A stretch of 32,000 nucleotides of DNA from Candidatus Saccharimonadota bacterium (GCA_004563595.2 CP042461.1:300001-332000); one strand, 5' to 3'; shown: positions 5,488 through 25,071, numbered from the stretch's first letter. The notes: generated by a model not told the origin, from the letters alone. Made by a program: numbers and translations.

Positions 5488-5525
5488 TAAAAAAGCGCTT
5501 TCTCTATAGAGAAAGCGCTTTTTTA
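5488..5525. terminator. Bidirectional terminator (11-bp perfect stem)
   Basis: agcgctttctc-tata-gagaaagcgct hairpin flanked by A- and T-runs. It overlaps the malic-enzyme stop codon. Confidence 0.8.
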
Positions 5526-6683
5526 TTTTATTACTTTTGCAATTTCATCTGCAACTCATCTATCAAGAGGAGAGGGGATAATCTCATCAACAGTAGGATT
5601 TTTTATATAAGCCGCAAGAGCTTTTGCAGCTGTTATCTTCATATCATCTGTGATTTTATTCACTCTATTTTGAAGTGCTCACTTAAAAAGTCATGGAAAC
5701 ACCAGTACATTGTTCAATTGATTTGGAAAATCAGAACGACCGGTTGCAATAATTTTTGCTCCAGCTTCTTTTGCCAAGTCAGGCATTATCTCTGGGGTAG
5801 GATTTGCCATCGCAAAGATCATTGGATCAGTATTCATAGATCTCACCATATCTTGAGAGAGAGCTCCAGCAACTGATACTCAAATGAATACATCCCTGTC
5901 TTTTACAGCTTCAGTTAATCATCACTTTATACATTCTTTAGAGTCTGGATCAAGAATACACGCTGTATTTGTAATATCAGTAAGCATCTCTTTTGTTGGA
6001 TTGAGCCCATCTCTTTCTTTGTGGATAGTTCATCTGCTATCAACCATAACTATATCCTTTACTCAGTAGAGAAGGAGGAGTTTTGTAATTGCTACTCCGG
6101 CAGCTCATACTCCATTTACTACAACTTTGATCTCTTCTTTAGTTTTTCCTGTGATCTTTAAACCGTTAATAAGTCCTGCAAGGGTTACAATTGCAGTTCC
6201 ATGTTGATCATCATGAAATACTGGTATATCCAGTTCAGCTTTGAGTCTTTCTTCTATTTCAAAACACCTTGGTGCTGAAAAATCTTCTAAGTTAATTCAC
6301 CCAAAAGTCGGAGCAATATGTTTGATAGTTTGTATTATTTCTTCTGTATCTTGAGTATCAAGAATAATAGGGAATGCATTTACTCATCCAAATTCTTTGA
6401 GGAGAGCACATTTTCATTCCATAACCGGAAGTCATGCAATTCATCCTATATTTCCAAGTCATAGTACAGCTGATCCATCGGATATAACGGCTACTGTATT
6501 TGCTTTGAGGGTATATTCATAGGCTTTTTCACTATCTTTTGCTATTTCTCTACATGGTTCTGCTACTCATGGTGAATACGCAAGAGAAAGGTCATCTTTT
6601 GTATTAAGAGACATTTTTAAACCTGTTTCAAGTTTTCCTTGATGTTGCTTATGTAATTTTAGGCTTTCTTTAAAGTAGTCCAT
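5523..6683 (-). CDS. NAD(P)-dependent malic enzyme (short form)
   Basis: 386 aa under code 25. Sequence: ...[14 protein letters not shown]...[36 protein letters not shown]...[19 protein letters not shown]...[13 protein letters not shown]...VNGVGAAGVA. Confidence 0.9.
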
Positions 6684-6852
6684 AGTTTGATTTAAGTTAT
6701 ATGTATAGAAGAGTATTATATATGATTTAAGAATTATGCAAAATAATATATCAGTATTTTTTAACATGAATCCTTACATGCTTCTTACTTAGTATGTATA
6801 TATTGATATTAATTCAATAGGAATATTACTGTATTTGTATATCAATTTTAGT

Positions 6853-7106: not shown

Positions 7107-10100
7107 ATGTTACAGTTATATGTAAAGATAGACCAAAATAAAGAGAAATGTTTCAGTATTGATGTGAGTTCTGAACTTACGCAAGATGAATCAAAGATTC
7201 TTTATGAAATTCTAGCCCCAGGCTGGGAAGTAGATCTAATCAGTCTTAGACCTTACCTTGATATTTGTGATGGGAAAGGTGTTGAGATTGGACCACGTAT
7301 GAACTTTGAAACAGCTTTTTCTACGAATGTAGTTTCTACATACCATAATATTGGTTTGCAGAAGGTTCTTCGTGTTGAAAAATCTATCCGGTATCTTACT
7401 GATAATGTTTCAAGAGTAATTGAAATACAATGTGATCGTATGACCCAAGAGGTCTATTATAGACCTCTTGGGTCATTTTCTCTTGATCGTCCTGTTTATG
7501 AAGTAGTTAAACTTGGGCTTTTTGAAAATGGTATTGATGCTTTTAGCTTACTGAAAGGTCTTTCTTTTAGTGAACAAGATAAACAGATTTATTATGATTA
7601 TTTTGTGAATAAAGAAAAGAGAAATCCTACGAATGTGGAACTGTTTGATTTATTAAACTCTAATTGTGAACACTCACGACATGGTTGGTTCAATGCACTT
7701 CAAATTATTGATGGGGTTGAGCAGGAACATTCTGCTTTTTCATTGGTTAAATCAACTTTACAAGCAAATAAAAATGGGAGTGTAATTGGTTTTCATGATA
7801 ATTCGAGTAGTATTCGTGGTTTTATTGGAAAAATATTAATACCAACTTGTCCTGGTCAACCTTCTGAATTTATTCCACGAGTAGTTGATTGGGATCTTAC
7901 CTTTACAGCTGAAACTCATAACTTTCCAACTGGTATTGCTCCATATCCTGGAGCAGCTACTGGTACAGGAGGTCGTTTACGTGATCAGATGGCAACAGGG
8001 AAAGGAAGCAATGTTATAGCTGGTACTATTGGTTATGATGTTTCGTCTCTTCATATTGAAGGTTATGAATTGTCTGGTGAAAATCCAGATTTTCATTCTC
8101 CTGAGAATATGGCGACTGGCTTAGAAATCTTGATTCAAGGAAGTAACGGTGCCTCTAATTATGGAAATGAGTTTGGTGAACCTCTCATTCAAGGTTATAG
8201 TCGTAATTTTGACCTGAGAATTCCAAATGGTGAACGCTGGGCTTATGTAAAGCCTATATTGTTTACTGGTGGAATTGGGCAAATGCGACATGAACATCAT
8301 GAAAAAGGTCATGCAGAAAAAGGTTTACTTATCGTTCAGGTAGGTGGTCCTGCATATCGTATTGGCTTTGGAGGTGGTGCTGCTTCTAGTATGCATCAAG
8401 GTGATAATGATGCTGAACTTGATTTCAATGCCGTGCAACGTGGCAATGCTGAAATGGAGAAAAAACTGTATAATGTTGTACGTACTTGTAATGAGATGGG
8501 TGAAAACTCTCCTATTGTAAGTACACATGACCAAGGTGCAGGTGGTCCAGGAAATATACTGAAAGAACTTGTTGAAGAATCTGGAGGGAGAGTTGATATT
8601 CGTAAAATCAATAGTGGTGATCCGACATTATCGGTATTGGAACTGTGGGTTTGTGAATTTCAAGAACGTGGTGGTTTTTTAATTCCTCGTGATCGAATTG
8701 AAGAATTTTTATTAATTTGTGAAAGGGAGAAAGTTCCATGTGAAATATTGGGTGAAGTGACTGGTGATGGACGTTTTGTAGTTGAAGATAGTCATGATGG
8801 ATCAACTCCTGTTGATTTTGACTTAAAAGCAATTCTTGCTGATTTCCCTCGTACTACGTATGAGGATACAAGAATTGATCTTGGATTACAATCACTTGAA
8901 ATTCCTGATGAATTAACTGTATCTGTTGGACTTGAGAGAGTTTTTAAACTTCTTTCTGTTGGTTCAAAAGGTTACTTAGTTCACAAGGCTGATCGAAGTG
9001 TAAGTGGCCTAATTGCTCAGCAACAGTGTGTAGGTCCTCTCCAGTTACCATTATCAAATGTTGCTGTAATTGCTCTTTCTCATTTTGAGTTATCGGGTGG
9101 AGCAACAGCTCAAGGTGAAAAGTCGCCTTGTATGATAGTGAATCCAGAAGCAGGAGCTCGTTTATCGATCGCAGAAATGCTCATGAATATGATGTGTGCT
9201 GGTATTACTGATATTAAGCATGTTAAATGTTCTGTAAATTGGATGTGGGCACCAAAAAAACCAGGTGAAGGAGCTGCATTGTATGATGCAGTAAATTCTA
9301 TGTCTCAATTTATGCCACTCCTTGGAGTAGCAGCAGATGGAGGGAAAGATAGTCTATCTATGGCAGCTGAAGTGAATGGTGAATTAGTAAAATCACCAAG
9401 AACAATGGTTGTTTCAGGGTATGCTCCAGTAGCAGATATTACAAAAGTTGTCACACCAGATATTAAAAAACCTGGTGAAAGTCAGCTTTTGTATATTGAT
9501 TTATCTGCTGACTTGGCTCGCTTAGGTGGCTCAGCTTTTGCTCAATCACTTGGGCAGATCGGGAATGAATGTCCTGATATTGATACTCCAGAGCTATTAT
9601 TAAGTTTATTTGATGCTATTCAGGGGTTAATTACTGAAGATTTCATCTTGTCATATCATGATATTAGTGATGGAGGTCTTATTACGACGCTTTGCGAAAT
9701 GGCTATGGCTGGTAATTGTGGTATTGATGTTAATATACAGACTCAACAGGAAGCAATAAATAAGTTGTTTGCTGAAGAGCCAGGAATTATCATTGAAGTA
9801 CAACATGATTATATTGATGAAGTATTAATGGCTTTAAGCTTAAAAGGGGTAGGTTTTCAAAAAATTGGTGAAACAATTCCATGGAAGCATATAACTATTC
9901 ACGTAAATGACGATGAGGAGTTTAATCTAGCAACAAAAGATGTTCGTCAGTGGTGGAATGAAACTTCGTATCAGTTAGAAAAACAACAAGGAAATACTTG
10001 TGCTGATGATGAAAAAATGAATACTGATGACTTAAAAAATCCACAGTATTCATTAAGTTTTGTTCCTGAAATTACTTCAAAAGAAATTTTGGAGTCTGAT

Positions 10101-10895
10101 GAAAAAACCTGGGTTGCGGTGATTCGTGAAGAAGGAAGTAATGGAGATAGGGAAATGATATCAGCGCTTTATATGGCTGGTTTATGTCCTGTTGATATTA
10201 CTATGTATGATTTGCTGAATAAAAAAGTAGATCTTGCAGCTTTCCGTGGTGCTGTCTTTGTAGGAGGTTTCTCTTATGCAGATTATCCGGAATCAGCCAA
10301 AGGTTGGGCTGCAACTATTAGAAACAATCCAAGATTAAAAACTATGTTTACAGCGTTTAAGGAGCGCAGTGATACCTGGTCATTTGGTGTTTGTAATGGT
10401 TGTCAAATGATGGCTTTACTTGGTTGGGCAGTTTCTTCTGATATTCCTGAAGTAGAAAGACCTCGTTTTGTAAAAAATGTGTCTGATAAATTTGAGTCTC
10501 GTTATACTACGGTAAAAATACCAGAAAGTCGTTCGATTATGTTTAGTGGAATGTCTGGTTCGGTGTTACCGGTGTGGAGCGCTCATGCTGAAGGACAAAT
10601 TTTTGCTGATCAAGAATTATTAGCAAAAATGAGAATAGAAGGAAATGTTCCAGTGTTATACGCAGATAATGAAGGGGAAGAAACTCAAGATTATCCGTTT
10701 AATCCGAATGGGTCACCACTAGCAATTGCTGGTTTGTGTAGTTCAGATGGTCGGCATACAATTATGATGCCGCATCCAGAAAGACTTTTTCAGACTTGGC
10801 AGTTCTCATGGTTACCTGAAGAAATGCAAAACTTAACTGCATCACCTTGGCTGAAGATTTTTCAGAATGCCAGAGAGTGGTGTGAACAAAATTAA
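7107..10895 (+). CDS. purL: Phosphoribosylformylglycinamidine (FGAM) synthase, single-chain large PurL
   Basis: 1262 aa, uninterrupted even under the standard code. The glutaminase nucleophile GVCNGCQMM and the MMPHPER motif are present. All Gly codons (about 112 by hand count) are GGN and none is TGA. Ends in TAA. Confidence 0.95.
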   Translation: MLQLYVKIDQNKEKCFSIDVSSELTQDESKILYEILAPGWEVDLISLRPYLDICDGKGVEIGPRMNFETAFSTNVVSTYHNIGLQKVLRVEKSIRYLTDNVSRVIEIQCDRMTQEVYYRPLGSFSLDRPVYEVVKLGLFENGIDAFSLLKGLSFSEQDKQIYYDYFVNKEKRNPTNVELFDLLNSNCEHSRHGWFNALQIIDGVEQEHSAFSLVKSTLQANKNGSVIGFHDNSSSIRGFIGKILIPTCPGQPSEFIPRVVDWDLTFTAETHNFPTGIAPYPGAATGTGGRLRDQMATGKGSNVIAGTIGYDVSSLHIEGYELSGENPDFHSPENMATGLEILIQGSNGASNYGNEFGEPLIQGYSRNFDLRIPNGERWAYVKPILFTGGIGQMRHEHHEKGHAEKGLLIVQVGGPAYRIGFGGGAASSMHQGDNDAELDFNAVQRGNAEMEKKLYNVVRTCNEMGENSPIVSTHDQGAGGPGNILKELVEESGGRVDIRKINSGDPTLSVLELWVCEFQERGGFLIPRDRIEEFLLICEREKVPCEILGEVTGDGRFVVEDSHDGSTPVDFDLKAILADFPRTTYEDTRIDLGLQSLEIPDELTVSVGLERVFKLLSVGSKGYLVHKADRSVSGLIAQQQCVGPLQLPLSNVAVIALSHFELSGGATAQGEKSPCMIVNPEAGARLSIAEMLMNMMCAGITDIKHVKCSVNWMWAPKKPGEGAALYDAVNSMSQFMPLLGVAADGGKDSLSMAAEVNGELVKSPRTMVVSGYAPVADITKVVTPDIKKPGESQLLYIDLSADLARLGGSAFAQSLGQIGNECPDIDTPELLLSLFDAIQGLITEDFILSYHDISDGGLITTLCEMAMAGNCGIDVNIQTQQEAINKLFAEEPGIIIEVQHDYIDEVLMALSLKGVGFQKIGETIPWKHITIHVNDDEEFNLATKDVRQWWNETSYQLEKQQGNTCADDEKMNTDDLKNPQYSLSFVPEITSKEILESDEKTWVAVIREEGSNGDREMISALYMAGLCPVDITMYDLLNKKVDLAAFRGAVFVGGFSYADYPESAKGWAATIRNNPRLKTMFTAFKERSDTWSFGVCNGCQMMALLGWAVSSDIPEVERPRFVKNVSDKFESRYTTVKIPESRSIMFSGMSGSVLPVWSAHAEGQIFADQELLAKMRIEGNVPVLYADNEGEETQDYPFNPNGSPLAIAGLCSSDGRHTIMMPHPERLFQTWQFSWLPEEMQNLTASPWLKIFQNAREWCEQN

Positions 10896-12058: not shown

Positions 12059-13219
12059 GTGAAAATGGTTGATTTATACGAAGTAGCTGGTGTAGATGTA
12101 GAGGCAGGTGATACTGCTTCTTCAATTGCAGCAAAATTTTGTAAAGAAACGTATCAAAATTCACCGATTGCATCAGTTGTTGATATGACAAATGGTAATT
12201 TTCGTGGACCACGAGCAATTGATTTGGATGATAAATTTCGTATGAAACCTTATTATCTCTCATGTGCTCCTGATGGCATTGGTACCAAAGTGGTATTACA
12301 TGATGCTGCGAAAACCTATGGTGTTGCTGCATTCGACCTTATAGCAATGACAAGTTTTGATCTTGTTCGTTGGGGAGGGATGCCAGTATTTTTTACATCT
12401 GTATTAGATGTAAGTAAATTAGGGAAACCTGATTCTGATTCATTTAAAGCAACGGTTGCCTTATACTCCGGTGCAGCAAAGGCTGCTACTGAAGTGGATA
12501 TGGTTATTTTGAATGGTGAAACTGCTGAATTGGGTGCTCAAGTAGCTTCAGAAAATCCTGATGGAACTTTACAGTTTAACTGGGGTGGTTCTGCTCAAGG
12601 ATTATATCATCCTGATAAGATGATACTAGGAAAGACGCTGAAGCCTGGTCAAGTTATTATGTTGTTAAAAGAAAATGGATTTCGTAGTAATGGTATTTCA
12701 TTAGTACGATCAATTTTTGCTCATCAATATGGTAAAGACTGGTATACAAAACCAGATGCACAAAAATATATTCGTATGGCAGCAGAACCATCTGTTCTTT
12801 ATGATAAGTTTTTTTGTAGTATCAATGGTTGGTATGAAGATGATTCACAACGGATTAAAGTTCATTCATTGGTTCATCTCTCAGGAGGGAGTTTTGAATC
12901 AAAATTTGGGAAAGATATTCTTTACCCTCTTGGCTTATCGGCTGATATCTCTGATCCATGGGAATTACCTGAAATCATGCAAGAGTGCTCCGAATGGGGA
13001 ACTTCAGATGGAAAAATTGATGATTTAACATTATATAGAACCTGGAATGGAGGCCAGGGAGCATTAGCTGTTATTGATAAAATTGATGCAGAAAAATTTA
13101 TGGAAGAAGCGACAAGATTTGGCTTAGAAGCAAAAATAGGAGGGGTAATAACAAAAAATGATACTCCATCTGTTCGATTAAAATCGAGTTTAACAGGGGA
13201 TGATATCATTTTTGGATAA
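12059..13219 (+). CDS. purM: AIR synthase (PurM)-like protein
   Basis: Sequence: YEVAGVDVEAGD...CAPDGIGTKV...AFDLIAMTSFDLVRWGGMPVFF...ILNGETAELG...ENGFRSNGISLVR. The SD aaaggagag favours ATG 12065 over the track's GTG 12059. About 37 Gly codons, none TGA. Ends in TAA. Confidence 0.85.
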   Translation: MKMVDLYEVAGVDVEAGDTASSIAAKFCKETYQNSPIASVVDMTNGNFRGPRAIDLDDKFRMKPYYLSCAPDGIGTKVVLHDAAKTYGVAAFDLIAMTSFDLVRWGGMPVFFTSVLDVSKLGKPDSDSFKATVALYSGAAKAATEVDMVILNGETAELGAQVASENPDGTLQFNWGGSAQGLYHPDKMILGKTLKPGQVIMLLKENGFRSNGISLVRSIFAHQYGKDWYTKPDAQKYIRMAAEPSVLYDKFFCSINGWYEDDSQRIKVHSLVHLSGGSFESKFGKDILYPLGLSADISDPWELPEIMQECSEWGTSDGKIDDLTLYRTWNGGQGALAVIDKIDAEKFMEEATRFGLEAKIGGVITKNDTPSVRLKSSLTGDDIIFG

Positions 13220-15069: not shown

Positions 15070-15532
15070 ATCGTATCTTGATGAGAAGCAAGAAGAGCTA
15101 TGAGAATATAATAGACTCCTTCAAATGAGGGAAAATATATTAGAACAATGAAGAAGTTGATATATTTCTGAAGAGGCATTCCAGCAGGCATGGAATCAAC
15201 TAGAGGATGAAATTCAAAATTATTTGATAAAGAAGAATGTATATAAACCTGAAATAAATATAGGTATGTTACTTTGTATGGTTATACAAAAAGTATCTAT
15301 CGAAATTAATGATATATTAAATGGATGAGGCTCTGGTTCTTGAGGGAGGAAATGACATGCTCACAGATATGAAACAGACAATGAGCAATTTTATAAAAAT
15401 GAGGCAGAGGATATAGCAAGAAGTGAGGAGTTAGAATGTAAGAAAAAACAGGCAAGAGAAGAAATGAAAAGATTTAGAAAACAAGAGGAAGAATATTCTA
15501 GATTTCATCAAAAGAATGGCCACCGTATGTAA
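15059..15532 (+). CDS. Hypothetical coiled-coil protein (157 aa), overlapping the upstream gene by 11 nt
   Basis: ATG 15059 lies inside the last codons of the HD gene. Contains a central GGGSGSGG linker, partly TGA-encoded. The C-terminus is charged. Confidence 0.5.
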
Positions 15533-15593
15533 AATAAGTGTAACTAAAAAAATGGGGGTTTTGATTGATATAATTGAATACCTCGTTTTAATT

Positions 15594-15623
15594 AAAAAGT
15601 CCTCGTTAAGAGGGCTTTTTTTT
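15594..15623 (+). terminator. Rho-independent terminator
   Basis: gtcctc-gttaa-gagggc hairpin followed by a T-run. Confidence 0.65.
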
Positions 15624-15713
15624 GACTTTATTTTATATATAGTTTGAATAAAATTTTTATGAGGTATAATTAAAATAGACATAAAAGAATATATTTTTTC
15701 ATCATATACATAC

Positions 15714-17012
15714 ATGTTATTTTCAGATTTAGATATTATCAAACCTATTTTAAATGCTCTTGATAAACAAGGATATAAAAATCCTACTCCTATTCAAGAA
15801 AGAGCTATTCCTCATATCCTTGATGGAAAAGATGTACTTGGTTCTGCTCAAACTGGGACAGGGAAGACAGCAGCGTTTGCTATTCCAATATTACAACTCT
15901 TATCAAGAGAAAAAGAAATTTCAAATTTTTCAGGTGCTATTAAGTGTCTTATCCTGACACCGACTCGTGAGTTAGCAATTCAGATAGAGGAAAATATAAA
16001 AGAGTACTGAGCTCAGTTATGACTTCGTCATTCCGTTATTTTTGGTGGAGTAAGTCAAGGTTCACAAGTCAGAAAACTAAAAGCAGGAGTTGATATCCTG
16101 GTAGCCACTCCATGAAGATTATTAGACCTCATGAATCAATGATATGTTGATTTAAAAAAAGTTGAAATATTCACACTCGATGAAGCAGATAGAATGCTGA
16201 ATATGGGGTTTATAAATGATGTAAAAAAGGTCCTTGCAAAATTACCAACTAAAAGACAAACACTGTTCTTTTCAGCAACCATGCCAAAAGAAATAGCTTG
16301 ACTTGCAGATTCTATTTTAAATCATCCTGTAAAAATTGAAGTCACTCCTGTTTCTTCTACGGCTGATACAGTCAAACAAGTAGTATTTTTTGTTACTAAA
16401 TGAAGCAAAAAACTTCTTTTAATAGATATTTTGGAATATAAAGGGATAAAATCACTCCTTGTTTTTACCCGTACGAAACATGGGGCTGATAATGTAGTGA
16501 AAGATCTTGTAAAATCAGGGGTAACAGCTGAAGCTATCCATGGAAATAAATCACAAAATGCCCGTCAAAGAGCACTCAAAAACTTCAAAGGATGAGTAAC
16601 AAGAGTTCTCGTTGCCACTGATATAGCAGCCAGAGGGATTGATATCGATGACCTCACATTTATGGTCAATTATGACTTATCAAATGAACCAGAAACATAT
16701 GTACATCGTATTGGTCGTACTTGAAGAGCTTGAAAAAATTGAGTTGCCTACTCTTTTTGTTGCCAAGAGGAAGTAGAATATCTCTTGGATATTCAAAAAA
16801 TGCTATGAAAAAAAATACCAGTGAATGAAAAACATCCATATGCAATAACAGTTGATGAAAGCATTAAGGCTCCAAAAAGACAACAATGAGGAAGAGGGAG
16901 ATGAGGACGCTGAGGCTGAAACTCTTCAAGACATTGAAATAGTTCAAAGTGAAAAAGACCAGCTGTGGCGAAAAGGAAAAATAATGTAAAAAGGAATAGA
17001 AATAAAATATAG
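15714..17012 (+). CDS. DEAD-box ATP-dependent RNA helicase
   Basis: Motifs present: Q motif, [23 protein letters not shown] (the G is TGA at 16113-16115), DEAD, SAT and HRIGRTGR. The tail is RG-rich (GGRGRGGRGGG), largely TGA-encoded. Confidence 0.95.
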
Positions 17013-17262: not shown

Positions 17263-17814
17263 GTGAATCATTATTTGAGCTATGTGCTCGATAGTAAAGA
17301 AGTACGTAAAAAGCTTGGGAATGATACGATGTTTCATTTTGATCAGTCGCCACTGGTGTATGCTGAAATTTGGAAACCCATAGAGATTAGCTTTGCTAAA
17401 TTATCTGGTGTTAAGAAAGGTGATATCCCGGATTTGATGATTCGTAATGGCCGTTTGTTCTTGAATGAAAAAGCATATGAATGTTTGCGTGAAACTTTGG
17501 AAGCTCATGGAGAATTTTTACCTGTTACATTTGGTAGTGAAGCTGGTTATCTTTTCAATATTTTGAGGTTGGCCGATGATATTGGGGGGCTCAATCAAAA
17601 ACTCAGTACTAGAGATGAACATGATGATTTACAATCATTGGTCTTCCATGAAGAGAAAATGATAAAAATATTGGTTTTTCGCACCTCTTTTGATGATTAT
17701 ATGGGTGTGTATTGCAATGGTGCCTTTAAGCAAGCCGTGGAAAATGCTGGATTGAAAGGACTTGTTTTTAGTCTGGATTTGTGAAATATCTTTCCGACAG
17801 ATTCTTCTGTGTAA
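17263..17814 (+). CDS. TGA-free Imm11/DUF1629-like putative immunity protein
   Basis: 173-aa ORF from GTG 17263 (alternative ATG at codon 23) with no internal TGA. The layout ..PD...L.L.EKAYECL...GEFLPV...YLFNIL...VFR... recalls DUF1629/Imm11. The standard-code stop is TGA 17782-17784. Code 25 reads on as G-NIFPTDSSV to TAA at 17812-17814. Confidence 0.55.
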
Positions 17815-17832: not shown

Positions 17833-17863
17833 TAAAAAAAACCTAATAAATAGGTTTTTTTTT
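17833..17863 (+). terminator. Rho-independent terminator
   Basis: aaaaaaaaccta-ataaa-taggttttttttt hairpin. Confidence 0.7.
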
Positions 17864-17878
17864 ATTTTTGTAAAAAAA

Positions 17879-18079: not shown

Positions 18080-18118
18080 ATAGTTAGTAGGTTATAACTT
18101 TATACACCTACTAACTAT
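18080..18118 (+). promoter_or_regulatory. 13-bp perfect inverted repeat overlapping the start codon of the 1116-aa gene
   Basis: atagttagtaggt (18080-18092), 13-nt loop, acctactaactat (18106-18118). The ATG is at 18117-18119. Confidence 0.6.
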
Positions 18119-21100
18119 GAACTTTCAACAACTTTTAGAAAATATTGAAACATCTCCAGAAATTTTAGAATACTTAAAATATGAAGATTCAACACAAGTG
18201 TTGGATGATATTTTGGAAAACTATAACGATGAACAAGACTATAATTTTCTTTTTCAAATATTTCACACATATATAGGGAATAATTTTCCTTATATTAGGA
18301 ATATATGATTTATTTTTGAAAAACTTATTGAAGAGTGAAAAGTAGAAAACACTCAAGAATTAGAGGAGTTTTTAATTGAAAAACTAACTCATTATGCTGA
18401 TAAGTTAAGAGAATGAGATAGGGATATTCTAAGTAAACTCCTTGTTAGTTTTACAACTCGTACAGAAGAAATGAAAGTTATATATAATAACCTAGAAAAA
18501 AAAGGGTTTTTAAGTGTCTCATCAGTATGATTTTTTACTAAATATTTTGCGAAAGAAGAAAAATGAGACTTTTTCATCAGGTCTTTTTTATATGATGAAA
18601 AAACATGGTTTAGAGGAGTGTTTATCTCTGGAAAAAATGAGGAATATCCTTTAAAAGGTATACAGAAAAGTATTCTTGATTTAGAACAAAAGCAATTTGC
18701 TCACTTTTTAACGGAAATTTCTAAAAAAGAAAATATAGCTTCATGGATTCGTAATGATAATGATTTTACAGATAATATTATAGCTACGGCAAAGTGATAT
18801 AAATTATTTTCGGAGTTATATATATTACTTACGAATATGTTAATGTATTCTAGAAATTATGAATACTCAGAAACTGATGCATATACAACCAAATTAAGAA
18901 CTATATTTGATATATGTAAGAATCAGAAACCAGTCCATTTTTATATTAGATTTTTTAAAGATATAAACTATTGAAAAGAAGGGTTCTATTATTTTAGATT
19001 GTTTGATGATTTTATAGGTCAAACACTACAAACAGAAGAAGACGTAAAGGATTTATTAAGTATGCCTGATTTACAAGAAAATAACTATATTTTAGGATAT
19101 AGGATATTTCAGTTTGTAAAACACTCGGATAGAAAAAATATAATTGAGTTTTTTCAAAAACAAATAGGGAAAGAAATTACTTTACATAGTGAAAATCAAA
19201 AAAAATATCTGGAAAATCAAAAAAAAATCCAAACAGAACAAGATAAGGAAATTAAGGAAGAAATTCAACAAGAATTAATAGTGGCTAAAGATACTGATAG
19301 AAAAATATCTTTTAAATTATTAGAATTTTATATTGGACAAAGTGATTTGTTTGAGGAAGAAAATATCGAGCAAATTATTACTGAACAAGTGAAAAGATAT
19401 TTTGAGTTTAAAAATTTAGATCCAACAAGAAAAGAAGCATTAGAGTCATTTAAAAAAACTGATACATGACATAGCTCTTATCAATTTCTTATTGATTCTT
19501 CTTTAGAAACTATACTAAAAACTGCAGAAAAACTTGGTATAGATTTATCAGAATACACAAGTAAAATAGTATGATTTATTCCCTTTAAGTATGATGGGGA
19601 GGATTTAAAGAAAATCCTTGATCTGGTTGCAGTTAATATTTCTTCAAAGGATATTGATCATATACTTTATGTATACAATACTTACCCTGACATTAATAGA
19701 TATCATATTTTTAATCTTATTTATTTTTACAAAAGAGTAAAAGATATAGTATCAGAAAATTGAGAGCAAAGAGCAGGATTTATCGGATTATTCAAAGAAC
19801 TATTAGAAGATGACTCAGTTTTTGTTTCCGATAAATTAGAAACATTAGTGGAATTGGAAGAATTATGAGTTGAAAAAAGTATTTACCAAGGTGTATTTGA
19901 TAAATATGATGCTGTATTTCCTGGTTTTAATTATTACAAGGACTACTTAGATAGTACTGGTAAATATGATTTCCAATTAGTTTTTAAGTCAAATGAACTA
20001 CTCATAAAACAAGGATATGTAGACGCTATTCAATGGAGAATTGATCAAGTAAGAAATTGATTTATCTCTTGTCCTGAAAAAAAGTGATGGTGATCTATTA
20101 CAAATTTACAATCAGAAATACATTTTGGTAGAGAGTTTATTCAAATATTTTCCGATTTTAAAACGGAACAATGTATACCAGAGATACTTGAATTATTAGA
20201 ATTTACATTTGAAAATTATAAGAAGTATCCAGAGTTTAGTAGATATATATGGGAAGGGATAAAAAAGTATTTAGACTGACTGCAAGGAGTATCTGAAATA
20301 ACTATTTTGATAGAGGGGATATGAGAATTATTGTTTAAAACTGAAAGTAGTGAAATTTCTGTTTATTTTAAAAGGTATATTGATGAGATAGATAATGGCA
20401 ATTTTATTGTTAATATAGATAATAGTATTCATGCCCACGAATACATTGAATTAAAGGAAAATATTTCAAAAGTTATTAAACAAAAAAATAAAATAGAAAG
20501 AATAATGGGTGATTTTGAAGAAAAAAATCACCGTAAGGATGAAGAAATTAAAGAGCTAAGAGAAAGATTAAATGAGATGGATAACAGTTACAGAAAATTA
20601 TCAACTGAAAATGAGTATAAAAATAAGAAAATAAAAGAATTATGAGGAAAGGATATAGTGATATTAACCGAATGAAAAACTGATTGGAAGCATTTAATGA
20701 GGGCTTGGAAAGAATTAAGTAATATGTGATTATTAAAAAGTAATAGTATAGCATATGACTTTGAAAACTATGTTAAAAAATATGAAGATATAAATAATCT
20801 TATATGATGAACCGATTCCATAGATGGCTTTGTGAAAAGTTTTGCTGAATTATTTCCTGAAACATTAATTATAGTTATATTTGATACCGATTCATTTGGT
20901 CAAGGTAAAGAATTAAGGCAATTAAGAGTAAACTATAAAGAGAAGAAAAAAAGGAAGAAATTTAAACAATATGATTACTATAATTTTAAAAAAGAGGATG
21001 AAATTTTAGGTATTGAAAATACATATAAAAACTTATATTTATTTTTTCTACCAGTACCTCAATTTAGAAAAAAAAGCACTTTTTATAATAAAGAAATATG

Positions 21101-21467
21101 TATTGAGTTCTATTATGATGAATACTTATTAAATAGGTATCAATTTATTAGAAAATGTCAGCGAGGTCCAATTATACATAAATATGATAAATCTGTTCAT
21201 TTAATAGATAATATACATTATAGTTTTGGAAAAAAAGATAGACTTATTTTTGATGCAAATGAAAAATTACCATCTCATGATATGAATGGTGACCCATGTA
21301 GAGGGAATCTTTTGTATACTAAAAATCATTTTGCAGAAGATATACTAAATAATTTCCCTAGAAATAACCCTGAATATAAATCACCTTTAGATTACACTTG
21401 GAAAAGATTTTTACCAATATTTAAATGAATTAATGAAATTATTATAGATTTTAAATCCAAATTATAA
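18117..21467 (+). CDS. Large (1116 aa) helical protein with a C-terminal coiled coil and a Toprim-like (E...DxD) module
   Basis: Track ORFs 18117, 18999, 20331 and 20832 are all in one frame, separated only by TGA. An in-frame TAG at 18081 fixes the start. The C-terminus reads GKDIVILTEGKTDWKHL ... LIIVIFDTDSFGQG ... ICIEFYY. No P-loop is seen. Confidence 0.75.
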
Positions 21468-21471
21468 AAGC

Positions 21472-22635
21472 ATGAAAATAATAATCAACATTCTAAAAAT
21501 AATTCAAAAAATCGTATTTTTCTTTTTTCTATTTTTTGCTGTTATTTGAATACTGACTTGAGAATTTGGAGTTACTTTTATGTCTCTAATATTTTGTATA
21601 ATAGTGTATCCAACATTTTATAAAATGTTTCTTAAAAATGACTGGGCAAATAATGCTAAAAAAATTATATTTAAAATGCCTTCATGGGGAGAAGTATTAG
21701 ATAAAGTAAATATATTTAAGGATAGGTCTTTTATTGTTCAATTAAATGATAAAACTAAACTAGAATACTATAATATTTTAAGTGGCATTGAAGATTGAAC
21801 TATTAAAATCAACAAAACCTTGAAAGGTAAAATCAATAAAATTGCTCAGGAAAGTAACTTGGGATATAAAGATGTAGTTTTGAATTTATTTAAAAGTCTA
21901 TGACTCAGTATTAATACTGACTTTGATGAAGAAATAAAAGGACAATTAAGTATTATAAAAAACTTTATCACACATCTATATGAGGACTCCTTTGAGGAGG
22001 ATTTTAAATTGCAACTGAAAGACTTTCTGATTGATTACTGGATTCATATAATAGAAGATTTTAAAATTACTGATGAAGAAAATGATATATTAAATTTTCT
22101 TATTAATAAATTTCAATTTCAACTTGATGAAATATGATTTGATCAAAACGAATACAATAGATACCGTACTATATATCTTATTGAAGATAAATGAGAATTA
22201 CCTGATTTAAAAATAAAATGAGAATTACCAATTATACCGAAAAAATGAGAAAAGATATATTGGATGGAGTGAGCAGTAGTATATAAAAAGAAAATGGAGA
22301 TAGTAAAAAGGGCTTCATCATCTGATGGAATATCTATAAATTTAATGGCATGAGTGAGCTATAAACTAGGTAGTTACAATGCACCTGCTTATAAAGAAGA
22401 AGTGACATTAGTAGATGACTCAGGTTTTTTCATTATCACTAATCAAAGAGTATGATTTATTTGAGATACTAAAAATTTTTGGATTAATTATGATAAGGTT
22501 ATAAATTTTACTGCAAATGAAGAAGGATTGGTTATTATGAAAGAAAATACATCAAAACCTTATATAGTTTCTCTTGGTGATTATAATTTACCACTATTGC
22601 TATTGTCTAAAATTATTAATGACATGGCTGAATAA
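21472..22635 (+). CDS. Membrane-anchored protein with a C-terminal bacterial PH-like domain (387 aa)
   Basis: Starts 4 nt after the upstream stop. Has N-terminal TM segment(s). The C-terminus reads GEKIYWMEGAVVYKK...DGISINLMAGVSYKLG...LVDDSGFFIITNQRVGFIGDTKNFWINYDKV. Confidence 0.65.
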
Positions 22636-22657
22636 TTTATATTAATAATTTAAACTC

Positions 22658-23383
22658 ATGGTAAAAAAAGATACTAAAAAAATAAAATCAATTAAAAAAT
22701 CAAAAGCACAGAAAAATGATTGGGTAGATGATATGTGAGGTTTGATAGAATGAGGTTTTAAGGTTTTGAGTAAGAATATTGCACTTACTTGAGCTATAGC
22801 ATTTGTTTTATGACTTTTGATGCAATATCTCATAATTGATAGTTTTATTGGTGGTTTAGGCTCTATCTACTATATTAATATAGAATATTCAATCATATAT
22901 TTTGTGGTGTTTTGTTTTATTCTACTTTTGGCATTTTTATTTTGATATATGTTTACTTTTTCATTTATTTTTATAATTTTATATTCTGTTTTACAAGTAA
23001 TATTTGAGATTGAAGGTAATTTGAATTATATATTTTCAGTTCTTTTTATAGTGTCAATAGTATTGCTTTTTATAAAAAGATATAGGATGTTTCTAAAAAA
23101 ATATGAAAAAATACTGACAGTATTTTTTCTTTTAACTTTTATTGCATGATTTTTCTTAGGTATTAACTATATGACCACACTATACAAAAACGTTAGTATT
23201 ATTACAAATACTGAAACTAATGTTTGAAAATTATATTTTTTTAATTGAGATTATTATTTTATAGAAATTGATTGAAAAAAAGTATTACTTCCAACAAAAG
23301 AAGTAGAAAAAATAGAATTATTAGAAAAGAATAATGATGAGATTGCTAAGGATATTATAGAAAGTGCAAATGAAAAAAAATAG
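22658..23383 (+). CDS. Polytopic membrane protein (241 aa)
   Basis: Lys-rich N-terminus, about 4-5 hydrophobic helices and a small soluble C-terminal domain. Lies 22 nt after the upstream gene. Confidence 0.65.
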
Positions 23384-23441: not shown

Positions 23442-24827
23442 CTATGAATAGTTATTTGTATTGCTAGATTCATATTTATAATTGCTATAAATTCAACTCA
23501 AACTTTCTTGCAATATATTAACAAATTCTGGAGAAAAGGCTTTCTTTCATTGAGGGATAACATGAGCGTATGCTCTTAGTATCATATCTATATTAAAACT
23601 TGATGTGAAAAGATTTGAAGAGGTATATAGTTGATCTTGCTTTGAAAAATCTGTAAGTATTTCTTGTATTCTTTTCTCAATACTTTCAACATTATTTTCT
23701 CACGCTCTAATTTTTCAAGCGGAATAAAAGAGGTCTAAATGCTTACTTTGTTTTTTTATATATTTTATTAATTCAAGATATCATAAAAATAGTTTTTCTA
23801 AAGAATTTAATTCTATATAAATGTTAGTCCACTCAGGTTTGTTCGTATAAAACATCTGCATGTTCTTTACAATTTGTGTGTATTTTTCAAGCTCTATATG
23901 ATTCTTTTTATTTGGAATTATAAAAAACTTTTTCTCATGGTAAGTTATAGAGTGAATATTTATTATTGATTCTTTATGAATTTCCGAAAATTTAAGATTC
24001 TTTCTCATTTTTTCTTTTTCAATAAAATTATCTGGGTTGTTAAGTGCTAAAAAACTTCTATATAGAATATTATCTTTTTTACTGACTTTATCTATTAAAG
24101 AATAAATAAAATTAGTAATTTGTTTTCTGTTCCATGATTCATATTGTTTTTTATACTTAGCGCTATTTGCCTCTACAAAAGTCTCAAAACAGGGGTTCCA
24201 TATTATTGTATAAGTTGACTCTTCTTGTTTAAAATATAATTTGGCCCTCCGATTATCATTTTCAAAAATATTAAAGCCAATATCTATACATCAGATCATA
24301 TATATTTCTACTCAGTTAAATAATATTTCTGTTTGATCATAATACTCAACTATTTGCATAAGTTTTTTGTATAATTCAGGTGAGACTGTTCATATGATAT
24401 ACTCTCAATTTGTTTCACCTTTTAGGGTGCTTCATATATCCAATTCTTTTTGATACTTGTAGCAAGTCCGTTTATATATCATGCATATATAATCTAGAAT
24501 CTTACATAAATACTTTATTTCATTGGAGTTGAGAAATAAAGTTGAATTTCAAATTGAGAATTTAAATTTATTTGGGGAAATTTTTAGTATGTATTTTCTT
24601 TCTTCTATAGGTTTCCATATATAACTTATGAGATCTGTATCAATATTTTTTTTACATAAGTGTATTAGTGTTTTAGACTGTGAATTACAATAAATAACCA
24701 TGAAAAAAAGGGATTCATCATTTTTTTCATGGAATTGCTTTATATTTGGTATATATAAGTCTCACTTCATGTATTGCGAATCAAAGTGCCAAGTATAATT
24801 GCATTTTTTTGCTATCAATTTATTCAT
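23442..24827 (-). CDS. Hypothetical protein (461 aa), no recognisable domain
   Basis: Runs from ATG 24825-24827 (minus) to TAG. It is in frame with track ORF 23781-24008 and has about 11 TGA codons. No tyrosine-recombinase R-H-R-Y pattern. Confidence 0.65.
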
Positions 24828-24864
24828 AAAATTTAGTGAATTTATAAAAAACTAGGTAATGTAA

Positions 24865-24884
24865 ACACCCAACGGGGATCGAAC
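24865..24884 (-). repeat. Partial copy of the tRNA 3' end (T-loop to acceptor)
   Basis: acacccaacggggatcgaac matches tRNA positions 25000-25019 (acacccggcagggatcgaac) at 17 of 20 positions, ungapped and in the same orientation. No 5' half is present. Confidence 0.6.
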
Positions 24885-24995
24885 TCAATGAAGCCCCATA
24901 ACAAAGGGATTTCACTCCATAATCATAAATAATAGCCTAAAAAGATTGAACTAAAAAAAGCCTCTATCGAGGGCTCTTTAGGTTTTTTTTCGTTA

Positions 24996-25071
24996 TGGTA
25001 CACCCGGCAGGGATCGAACCCACGCTAACCAAGGTCCGCGGCCTTGTGCTCTTCCACTGAGCTACGGGTGC
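24996..25071 (-). tRNA. tRNA-Arg (anticodon GCG), CCA-encoded
   Basis: 76-nt cloverleaf: GCACCCG-TA-GCTC-AGTGGAA-GAGC-A-CAAGG-CCGCGGA-CCTTG-...-GTGGG-TTCGATC-CCTGC-CGGGTGT-A-CCA. The acceptor and D arm resemble bacterial tRNA-Arg. The anticodon lies at 25037-25039. Confidence 0.8.

Follow-up and report, generated by a model that had tools for sequence, protein, structure and literature searches.

Gene A (18117-21467, + strand) lies in a 32,000-nt stretch of DNA from Candidatus Saccharimonadota bacterium (GCA_004563595.2, CP042461.1:300001-332000), hereafter the window, and encodes a 1116-residue protein in which a predicted helical body is followed by a coiled coil and a predicted C-terminal Toprim nuclease domain. 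The protein is interpreted, with somewhat better than even confidence, as a self-contained, ATPase-less, single-gene immune-type nuclease. Established directly were the gene model and genetic code, the Toprim subfamily and its intact set of catalytic residues, the common helical core, and the fact that the family is rare and occurs in variable or mobile contexts. Gracilibacteria and Absconditabacteria are uncultivated, host-dependent bacteria in which TGA encodes glycine, and to our knowledge almost nothing is known about their immunity.

Gene model and genetic code

Under the standard code the region 18117-23383 is broken up into short open reading frames (ORFs), whereas under translation table 25 it resolves into three genes on the + strand, namely A (1116 aa; helical protein with a predicted C-terminal Toprim nuclease), B (21472-22635, 387 aa; membrane-anchored, with a PH-like C-terminus) and C (22658-23383, 241 aa; a polytopic membrane protein and orphan). 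Genes A and B carry the locus tags A9Q91_01595 and A9Q91_01600 (Candidatus Gracilibacteria bacterium 28_42_T64). The frame 18084-21467 is open with table 25; from the ATG at 18117, gene A comprises 1116 codons and a stop, 3351 nt in total. Gene B starts 4 nt after the TAA stop of A (at 21472), and gene C 22 nt after the stop of B (at 22658). Translation confirmed the table-25 gene model of an initial annotation of this DNA, including the 3351-nt frame and both gaps. The same annotation had described A as a fusion of four standard-code fragments, which was corrected: the gene holds 22 in-frame TGA codons and falls into 23 pieces under table 11, with only a handful of long ORFs.

Across the window, ORFs of 100 aa or longer add up to 13838 aa with code 25, up from 4331 aa. 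TGA reads as glycine, and this is shown within gene A itself. The glycine of the invariant Toprim T-E-G motif (G853, 20673-20675) is encoded by TGA, the conserved W857 four residues on is encoded by TGG, and two of the glycines in the DEAD-box helicase motif HRIGRTGRAG (gene 15435-17012) are also TGA; therefore TGA stands for glycine and not for tryptophan.

Predicted Toprim nuclease domain

The predicted Toprim nuclease domain (A residues 839-1116; 20631-21464, + strand) was assigned from sequence profiles to the retron type I-C (Eco2/Ec67) subfamily. Residues 836-1116 alone match the nuclease part of the NCBIfam model retron_Ec67_fus (model positions 354-517) at 1e-10, with a score for A of 40.7 bits, far under the family cutoff of 450. 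Matches to RT-Toprim_I-C of PADLOC were obtained at 1.1e-10 and 2.5e-10 (1.1e-10 for the domain searched alone), and PADLOC AbiLii matches A weakly (6e-5). The Toprim matches appear only if the domain is queried by itself; full-length A returned only the weak AbiLii match and a coiled-coil match from Pfam, PADLOC, PHROGs and NCBIfam. In the nearest full-length homolog, P0002, the recoded C-terminus passes the threshold of Pfam OLD-like_TOPRIM (PF20469; 4e-8) and also matches DUF3226 at 3.5e-5.

A scan of GTDB genomes yielded 79 loci that match solely A residues ~810-1110, and no recoded relatives of A, probably because TGA-encoded glycine breaks the back-translated search patterns. An alignment of 80 Toprim domains was assembled, three from the A family and 77 from other bacteria. 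Used as a profile against the PDB, it matched the solved chains of Retron Ec67 (9i2f, 9i2g, 9s1f, 9lm3) at 3e-9; these were reached only by the 80-sequence profile, and a PDB search with the single C-terminal sequence of A gave nothing meaningful.

Throughout the 80-domain alignment T-E-G, D856, D923, E997 (of the motif (C/S)IExYY) and K1069 never vary, and D925 hardly does. All 13 members of the A family have E852, D856, D923 and K1069, and 12 of them have D925. Gene A encodes all of the conserved residues: E852 (20670-20672), G853, D856 (20682-20684), D923 and D925 (20883-20885 and 20889-20891), E997 (21105-21107) and K1069 (21321-21323), all on the + strand. The motifs quoted in the initial annotation, GKDIVILTEGKTDWKHL, IIVIFDTDSFGQG and ICIEFYY, were found in the translated protein. 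In a hidden Markov model (HMM) alignment the glutamate of TEG, the next aspartate and the DxD pair with E374, D378 and D460 plus D462 of Eco2, residues at which mutants lose both RNase activity and phage defense (PMC12405507, PMC12916289). The family-invariant K1069 aligns with Eco2 K546 in the HMM output; the catalytic lysine of Eco2 is given as K562, not K546, in PMC12405507.

By these profile matches, and by the conserved Glu-Gly and DxD columns, the C-terminus of A is classified as a predicted Toprim nuclease of the retron-Eco2/OLD-like clade with its catalytic residues intact, and the Toprim call of the initial annotation holds. Its DUF4435 and PARIS labels do not, as there is neither a Pfam DUF4435 match nor an ATPase partner, and membership of A in these groups was rejected.

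In 78 GTDB proteins the Toprim subtype is fused, according to Pfam, mainly to ABC-type ATPases (AAA_21, 45; AAA_15, 26), and further to retron reverse transcriptase (5), Schlafen AlbA_2 (4), NACHT (3), Sacsin (3), NB-ARC (2) and receiver (2) domains. This range of partners marks the subtype as a putative mobile effector module. Within the A family itself, two Toprim flavors occur on one helical body, TEGKTDWKH...CIEFYY in A and VEGPTDKK...LYDFDG in P0002 and P0009, which indicates that the effector was swapped within the family.

Helical body and coiled coil

The secondary structure of an AlphaFold2 (AF2) model, of low confidence, is all-helical to about residue 838, in keeping with the helical first ~830 residues of the initial annotation. 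Three parts can be distinguished. Residues 1-190 (18117-18686, + strand) are specific to the family of recoded lineages; they align solely with family members from the Candidate Phyla Radiation (CPR) and are the best-predicted part of the model, with a predicted local distance difference test (pLDDT) score of ~75-88. The helical core (residues 191-727; 18687-20297, + strand) is common to standard-code NACHT/HEAT proteins. A pair of long Lys/Glu-rich helices (764-793 and 800-838 by the DSSP assignment of the AF2 model) forms the coiled-coil linker (residues 764-838; 20406-20630, + strand), with a weak Pfam Tmemb_cc2 match at 774-838. Foldseek matches of the full-length model to karyopherins, CAND1 and other alpha-solenoids signify merely a helical repeat and were not used for function.

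The core shares with its NACHT relatives the motifs I-P-F-x-Y, N-E-L-L-I...D-A-I-x-W-R-x-x-Q and Y-I-W, and an HMM built from nine standard-code proteins aligns collinearly to A 191-727 with 103.8 bits. Two of the standard-code relatives contain a recognizable nucleoside triphosphatase (NTPase) region: P0014 (1354 aa), which was matched by a profile of A and P0002 at 5.4e-16, carries Pfam NACHT (2.3e-6), and the P-loop region of P0023 (1435 aa) matches the antiphage NACHT model EruA (1.6e-10). In both, the NACHT region is followed by HEAT-like repeats and then by the region that aligns with A. The standard-code relatives end in a different module with the motif LLDxKRxDL...ExK, for which Pfam gave no match and which, from the motif alone, is a putative PD-(D/E)xK-like nuclease.

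The NACHT/NB-ARC P-loop module present in P0014 and P0023 was not found in A. None of the 13 A-family members has a Walker A motif, and A has no NTPase, AAA or ABC match in Pfam, as the initial annotation had it in reporting no P-loop; nor was a match to RVT_1 or another reverse transcriptase found. The predicted architecture of A is thus a NACHT-downstream helical region, a coiled coil and a Toprim domain, with no NTPase.

As a separate observation, P0014, P0023, P0016, P0022, P0026, P0028, P0030 and P0033 combine NACHT, HEAT, the 'IPF/WR' core and the LLDxKRxDL...ExK module under the standard code. Their C-terminal two thirds have no Pfam or PADLOC model, and they look like a putative undescribed NLR-like (NOD-like receptor-like) nuclease family of its own.

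Family size and gene neighborhoods

The profile of A and P0002, compared with 1.84 billion representative proteins, found 28 proteins in two main groups. The first consists of ~13 full-length proteins (1015-1116 aa) with the same architecture as A, all from TGA-recoded organisms, the recoding being read from W or G at TGA positions. These relatives are 17-31% identical to A, every 90%-identity cluster examined holds one or two sequences, and a later homolog search added one protein only. Scans of viral contigs for A, B and C gave no match.

The neighborhoods of A-family genes are not conserved among the loci compared. One homolog (L001) has an AAA_14/DUF4143 ATPase gene upstream and a terminator-like hairpin downstream; another (L085) has an integrase, a DNA methylase and a resolvase nearby; a third (L086) is preceded by malic-enzyme and HAD genes and followed by a gene for a 158-aa single-transmembrane protein; a fourth (L089) has a Bro-N gene downstream. 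In two further loci (L087, 4827-11243; L088, 4935-11309) a tRNA-Cys abuts a gene for a ~640-aa serine recombinase upstream of the A homolog. The two recombinases are 38% identical and the two A homologs 24%, and the repeated order suggests an integrative element with A-family cargo. In the remaining locus (L090, 5453-7204; GCA_023245855.1) the A homolog is directly followed by genes for a 374-aa restriction-endonuclease-like protein with a PD-(D/E)xK-like motif (...FECKRVG...) and a 203-aa N6A-methylase-like protein with the motifs DPCSNE and NPPYG (DPPY/NPPY type); judged by these motifs, the two look like an unannotated restriction-modification pair.

A defense-type role for A is supported, at the level of domain and neighborhood comparison, since both halves of the protein occur in immune-type architectures and its relatives adjoin restriction-modification genes, recombinases and tRNAs; to this extent the defense reading of the initial annotation stands for A alone. 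The same mobile contexts would also fit A as part of an integrative element that serves selfish or competitive ends, for instance as an addiction toxin or as a nuclease against mobile elements, rather than host antiviral immunity. This is judged unlikely. In its favor are the large serine recombinases at tRNA-Cys beside A homologs in two divergent loci, the integrase and resolvases of L085, and the homologs of B that lie on elements with resolvases or with a PhdYeFM/RelE-like pair; but no candidate for a cognate antitoxin is conserved beside A, the A-D block of the window has no recombinase, and such elements commonly carry defense genes, so that context cannot separate the two readings.

That A might instead serve Gracilibacteria as a housekeeping enzyme of nucleic-acid processing (for RNA turnover, repair or topology), with B and C as unrelated envelope proteins, is very improbable. 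The flanking genes of the block are indeed housekeeping genes (purL/N/M, a DEAD-box helicase, recJ), its codon usage is native-like, and malic-enzyme genes are found in the vicinity of A and of its L086 homolog. Against this stand the small size of the family (~13 full-length relatives among 1.84 billion representatives, clusters of one or two, 17-31% identity), the lack of conserved neighborhoods, and the two Toprim flavors on one helical body, since effector swapping is atypical of housekeeping enzymes. The malic-enzyme gene of the window (5523-6767) lies 11 kb upstream of A and that of L086 (5900-7042) ~1 kb upstream of the homolog; the two are 55% identical and possibly mark a site that A occupied in a common ancestor. 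Genes purL and purM, which contain no TGA, separate the malic-enzyme gene from A in the window.

Genes B and C

Protein B begins with two transmembrane helices (~aa 10-28 and 32-54); its middle part is helical, and its C-terminus (~aa 262-387; 22255-22632, + strand) forms a PH-like beta-sandwich with a helix as its cap. In its AF2 model (pLDDT 68 overall, 76-86 from ~residue 310) the strands span 262-367 and the helix 372-386. Foldseek against the PDB gave PH/PTB/FERM-F3 structures at a probability of 1.0, among them the bacterial DUF1696 protein 3dcx, with E-values of merely 1e-2 to 1e-1, and the curated PH/bPH sequence families gave only PH_3 at E=0.099, under its cutoff. A PH-like fold of B is supported by the model, at fold level only. 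Protein C has ~5 hydrophobic segments and ends in a short soluble tail; no homolog was found in the family libraries (Pfam, PADLOC, PHROGs, NCBIfam), the fetched loci or viral contigs. The earlier descriptions of B as membrane-anchored and PH-like and of C as a polytopic membrane protein agree with these features.

Homologs of B fall into three clusters only, and a metagenome scan for B recovered only the already known contig. In two genomes (L002, L003) the B homologs, ~50% identical, follow a tRNA-Ile, a tRNA-Pro and an 85-aa gene in a stretch with resolvases and without A or C, and B appears to ride on a mobile element there. The 85-aa ORF before the B homolog (L002, 530-787; L003, 2923-3180) is conserved, as is a ~186-aa ORF after it, and L003 additionally carries a VirB4-like ATPase gene. 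The closest relative (L004/L005; contig Ga0075467_10045674, also an ENA contig) has a B homolog of 72-75% identity, and the 72 nt before it encode TWERFLPIFQGINESIIDFRSKS*, the C-terminus of an A homolog that ends 4 nt before B, as in the window. Downstream of B follow a 127-aa membrane protein and a PhdYeFM/RelE-like pair. The membrane protein shows no detectable kinship to C (local score 51; shuffle mean 38 +/- 6, maximum 56).

A and B are therefore truly linked, though only over a short evolutionary distance, and the full A-B-C arrangement is confined to this genome. The initial annotation had proposed a three-gene defense system. What stood of it was the defense-type reading of A and the A-B adjacency in the closest relative; the A-B-C arrangement itself recurs nowhere, C has no detectable homolog, and the seven other A-family loci (L001, L085-L090; 21-31% identity) have no relative of B, C or D (phmmer, blastp). 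Its call for a test of neighborhood conservation was answered in the same divided way, with A-B kept in L004/L005, no B or C at the seven A loci, and no A or C beside B in L002 and L003.

One lineage-specific system of A+B+C, or at least A+B, with A as the cytoplasmic sensor and nuclease and with B and C as tether, regulator or a second, membrane-disrupting effector, is rather unlikely, though the layout lends it some weight. All three genes are on one strand and lie only 4 nt and 22 nt apart, whereas most other same-strand neighbors in the window are separated by 25-160 nt; no terminator was called between A, B and C, and codon and TGA usage is alike across them; the closest relative repeats the 4-nt junction and has a small membrane protein after B. 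But that protein is not detectably related to C, the sole conserved A-B case comes from a close relative and may reflect only shared ancestry, and A and B each occur elsewhere without the other. In this genome the transcript of A probably also covers B and C, which are best treated as separate accessory cargo of a variable block beside tRNA-Arg, not as obligate partners of the single-gene nuclease; B may have joined A recently as a partner, or it may just be a neighbor. As a caution on guilt by adjacency, operon-like spacing is no proof of a multi-gene system when the nearest relative is the only one to keep it.

Genomic setting of the block

The GC content drops to 0.23-0.26 across 18-24 kb of the window. 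Convergent with C lies gene D (23442-24827, - strand, 461 aa), which is part of the same low-GC block as A-C and holds 12 TGA codons. It gave no match beyond noise in Pfam, PADLOC, PHROGs or NCBIfam and has no relative in the fetched loci; D is a neighbor that is not assigned to the system. The A-D block is bordered by tRNA-Arg(GCG) (24996-25071, - strand; Rfam scan), the tRNA noted in the initial annotation. Between D and this tRNA, the stretch 24864-24886 is identical at 19 of 23 positions to the acceptor/T-arm half of tRNA-Arg. Its score of 15 is marginal against a maximum of 14 in 30 shuffles, and Rfam calls no tRNA there; it may have been left by an old integration event. The search for attachment sites also picked out a tRNA-like stretch at 17878, which is at chance level.

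The proposal of an accessory island drew mixed evidence: its families are rare, relatives lie beside a tRNA and recombinase, and GC is low, but codon usage is native and the block has no recombinase. The rarity of the families and the tRNA and recombinase contexts of relatives give the better support for an accessory nature.

Upstream of A, a gene at 17329-17814 (+ strand) shows a Pfam match to Imm11 just under cutoff (2e-4) and a match to phrog_17602 (1e-7). With one TGA among 13 glycine codons and a GC3 (GC content at third codon positions) of 0.31, it was probably acquired horizontally. An AT-rich perfect inverted repeat with a T-run, found 3' of this gene by sequence inspection (17833-17862, + strand; AAAAAAAACCTA-ATAAA-TAGGTTTTTTTTT), is a likely terminator, judged by its sequence; the consensus terminator scan, which needs at least three G-C pairs, did not call it. 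Given this likely terminator and the 302-nt gap, A would begin its own transcription unit. The weak Imm11 match is what would speak for A as a polymorphic-toxin-like nuclease with a neighboring immunity gene. This explanation was rejected as barely credible on gene order and on trafficking domains: the putative immunity gene lies upstream of A, parted from it by the terminator-like hairpin and ~300 nt, its near lack of TGA and higher GC indicate a different history, and no signal peptide, transmembrane segment or known secretion/trafficking domain was found in A.

Further upstream, purL (7107-10895) and purM (12065-13219) contain no TGA, with 112 and 37 GGN glycine codons, respectively, and have the highest GC content of the window (0.37). 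Their neighbors, including the intervening purN, use TGA for 45-89% of glycine codons. It looks as if purL and purM were recently transferred from a standard-code organism into this code-25 genome.

Comparison with known systems

The closest counterpart of the effector is retron Eco2 (Ec67), a caged RNase that is freed by a phage nuclease; the activated Toprim cuts tRNAs in their acceptor stems, and translation is shut down (PMC12916289, PMC12405507). A and Eco2 share the Toprim subfamily with the motifs TEGKTDW(K/R)H, DxD and (C/S)IExYY and the conserved lysine, at equivalent catalytic residues, and both are single polypeptides in which a large N-terminal part is expected to keep the nuclease inactive. 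Unlike Eco2, A has no reverse transcriptase, its N-terminal part being a ~830-residue helical protein with a coiled coil; as the N-terminal parts differ, the caging and trigger logic must differ too. An Rfam scan of the window at gathering thresholds returned tRNA-Arg alone, with no retron non-coding RNA, and no search aimed at such an RNA was made.

With the OLD family (Class 1 OLD, Gabija GajA, retron Eco8 OLD), A has a C-terminal two-metal Toprim nuclease in common. Most GTDB proteins with its Toprim subtype are fusions of an ABC ATPase and a Toprim domain, and it is the 'VEGPTD' flavor of the A-family member P0002 that passes the Pfam OLD-like_TOPRIM threshold. An N-terminal ABC ATPase defines OLD proteins (PMC10568477), whereas A and its 12 relatives have neither a Walker A motif nor an ATPase match.

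Bacterial NACHT/STAND NLR-like proteins (bNACHT and Avs-like proteins; the EruA/HyoA NCBIfam models) resemble A in that its residues 191-727 are homologous to the NACHT-downstream region of proteins of the P0014/P0023 type, and in the overall order of a helical sensor and then an exchangeable nuclease effector at the C-terminus. A differs in having no NTPase, and in a Toprim domain attached via a coiled coil in place of the D...ExK-type module. PARIS AriB, AbiLii and the DUF4435-type proteins are likewise ATPase-less Toprim polypeptides that act as released effectors (weak AbiLii match, 6e-5), but they need a separate ATPase partner (AriA or AbiLi), and A is four to five times larger; the genes neighboring A gave no ATPase matches in Pfam and PADLOC scans. 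The lack of a reverse transcriptase thus excludes A from the retrons, that of an ATPase from the OLD nucleases, that of an ATPase partner from the PARIS and AbiL systems, and that of a NACHT domain from the STAND NTPases.

Proposed function and significance

For A as a single-gene immune-type nuclease the following scheme is proposed. The helical body (residues 1-760) would probably be both sensor and autoinhibitory scaffold, the coiled coil (764-838) would probably drive oligomerization, and the Toprim domain (839-1116) would be the effector, kept inactive by the helical body. A cue derived from the invader, either a protein or a nucleic-acid state, may lift the inhibition, whereupon two-metal cleavage of host or invader RNA, possibly of DNA, would lead to abortive infection or to an arrest of growth. 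Judging from Eco2, PARIS and the OLD systems as analogs, the nuclease is probably autoinhibited and freed on infection to cut RNA (tRNA) or DNA.

Several points weigh against this interpretation or limit it. The family is known from sequence alone, and its role in immunity, its autoinhibition, what triggers it and what it cuts are all inferred. The Toprim fold of residues 839-1116 is predicted from profiles, not from structure; the AF2 model, made from a two-sequence alignment, has a pLDDT below 35 across the Toprim part and of 48 overall. No PADLOC model spans the whole A protein. As to RNA versus DNA as substrate, OLD-type Toprims cut DNA. TGA makes up 40-86% of glycine codons in A-D, and their GC3 is like that of the neighboring genes; these genes are thus long-term residents of a code-25 lineage and not recent imports, and no recombinase was found within the A-D block of the window. 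The malic-enzyme gene near A and near its L086 homolog could mean vertical inheritance at a fixed chromosomal site. Finally, the A-B adjacency with its 4-nt junction, kept in the closest relative, may reflect a functional link between A and B.

A broader proposal can be formulated, although it is regarded as a long shot: the A family may represent an NTPase-independent branch of NLR-like immunity restricted to TGA-recoded CPR bacteria, in which an NLR-type helical sensor directly gates an Eco2-type, RNA- or tRNA-cutting Toprim nuclease through coiled-coil oligomerization, and to which B and C would have been recruited in this lineage as partners that couple the sensing of infection at the envelope to the cytoplasmic nuclease.

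Ordinary gene callers break gene A into fragments, so that it is invisible to defense-finder tools. The A family indicates that an Eco2-type Toprim domain and the helical region of NACHT proteins may be combined without an NTPase or a reverse transcriptase, and A would offer a compact test case for an NLR-type sensor that gates a nuclease without nucleotide hydrolysis.

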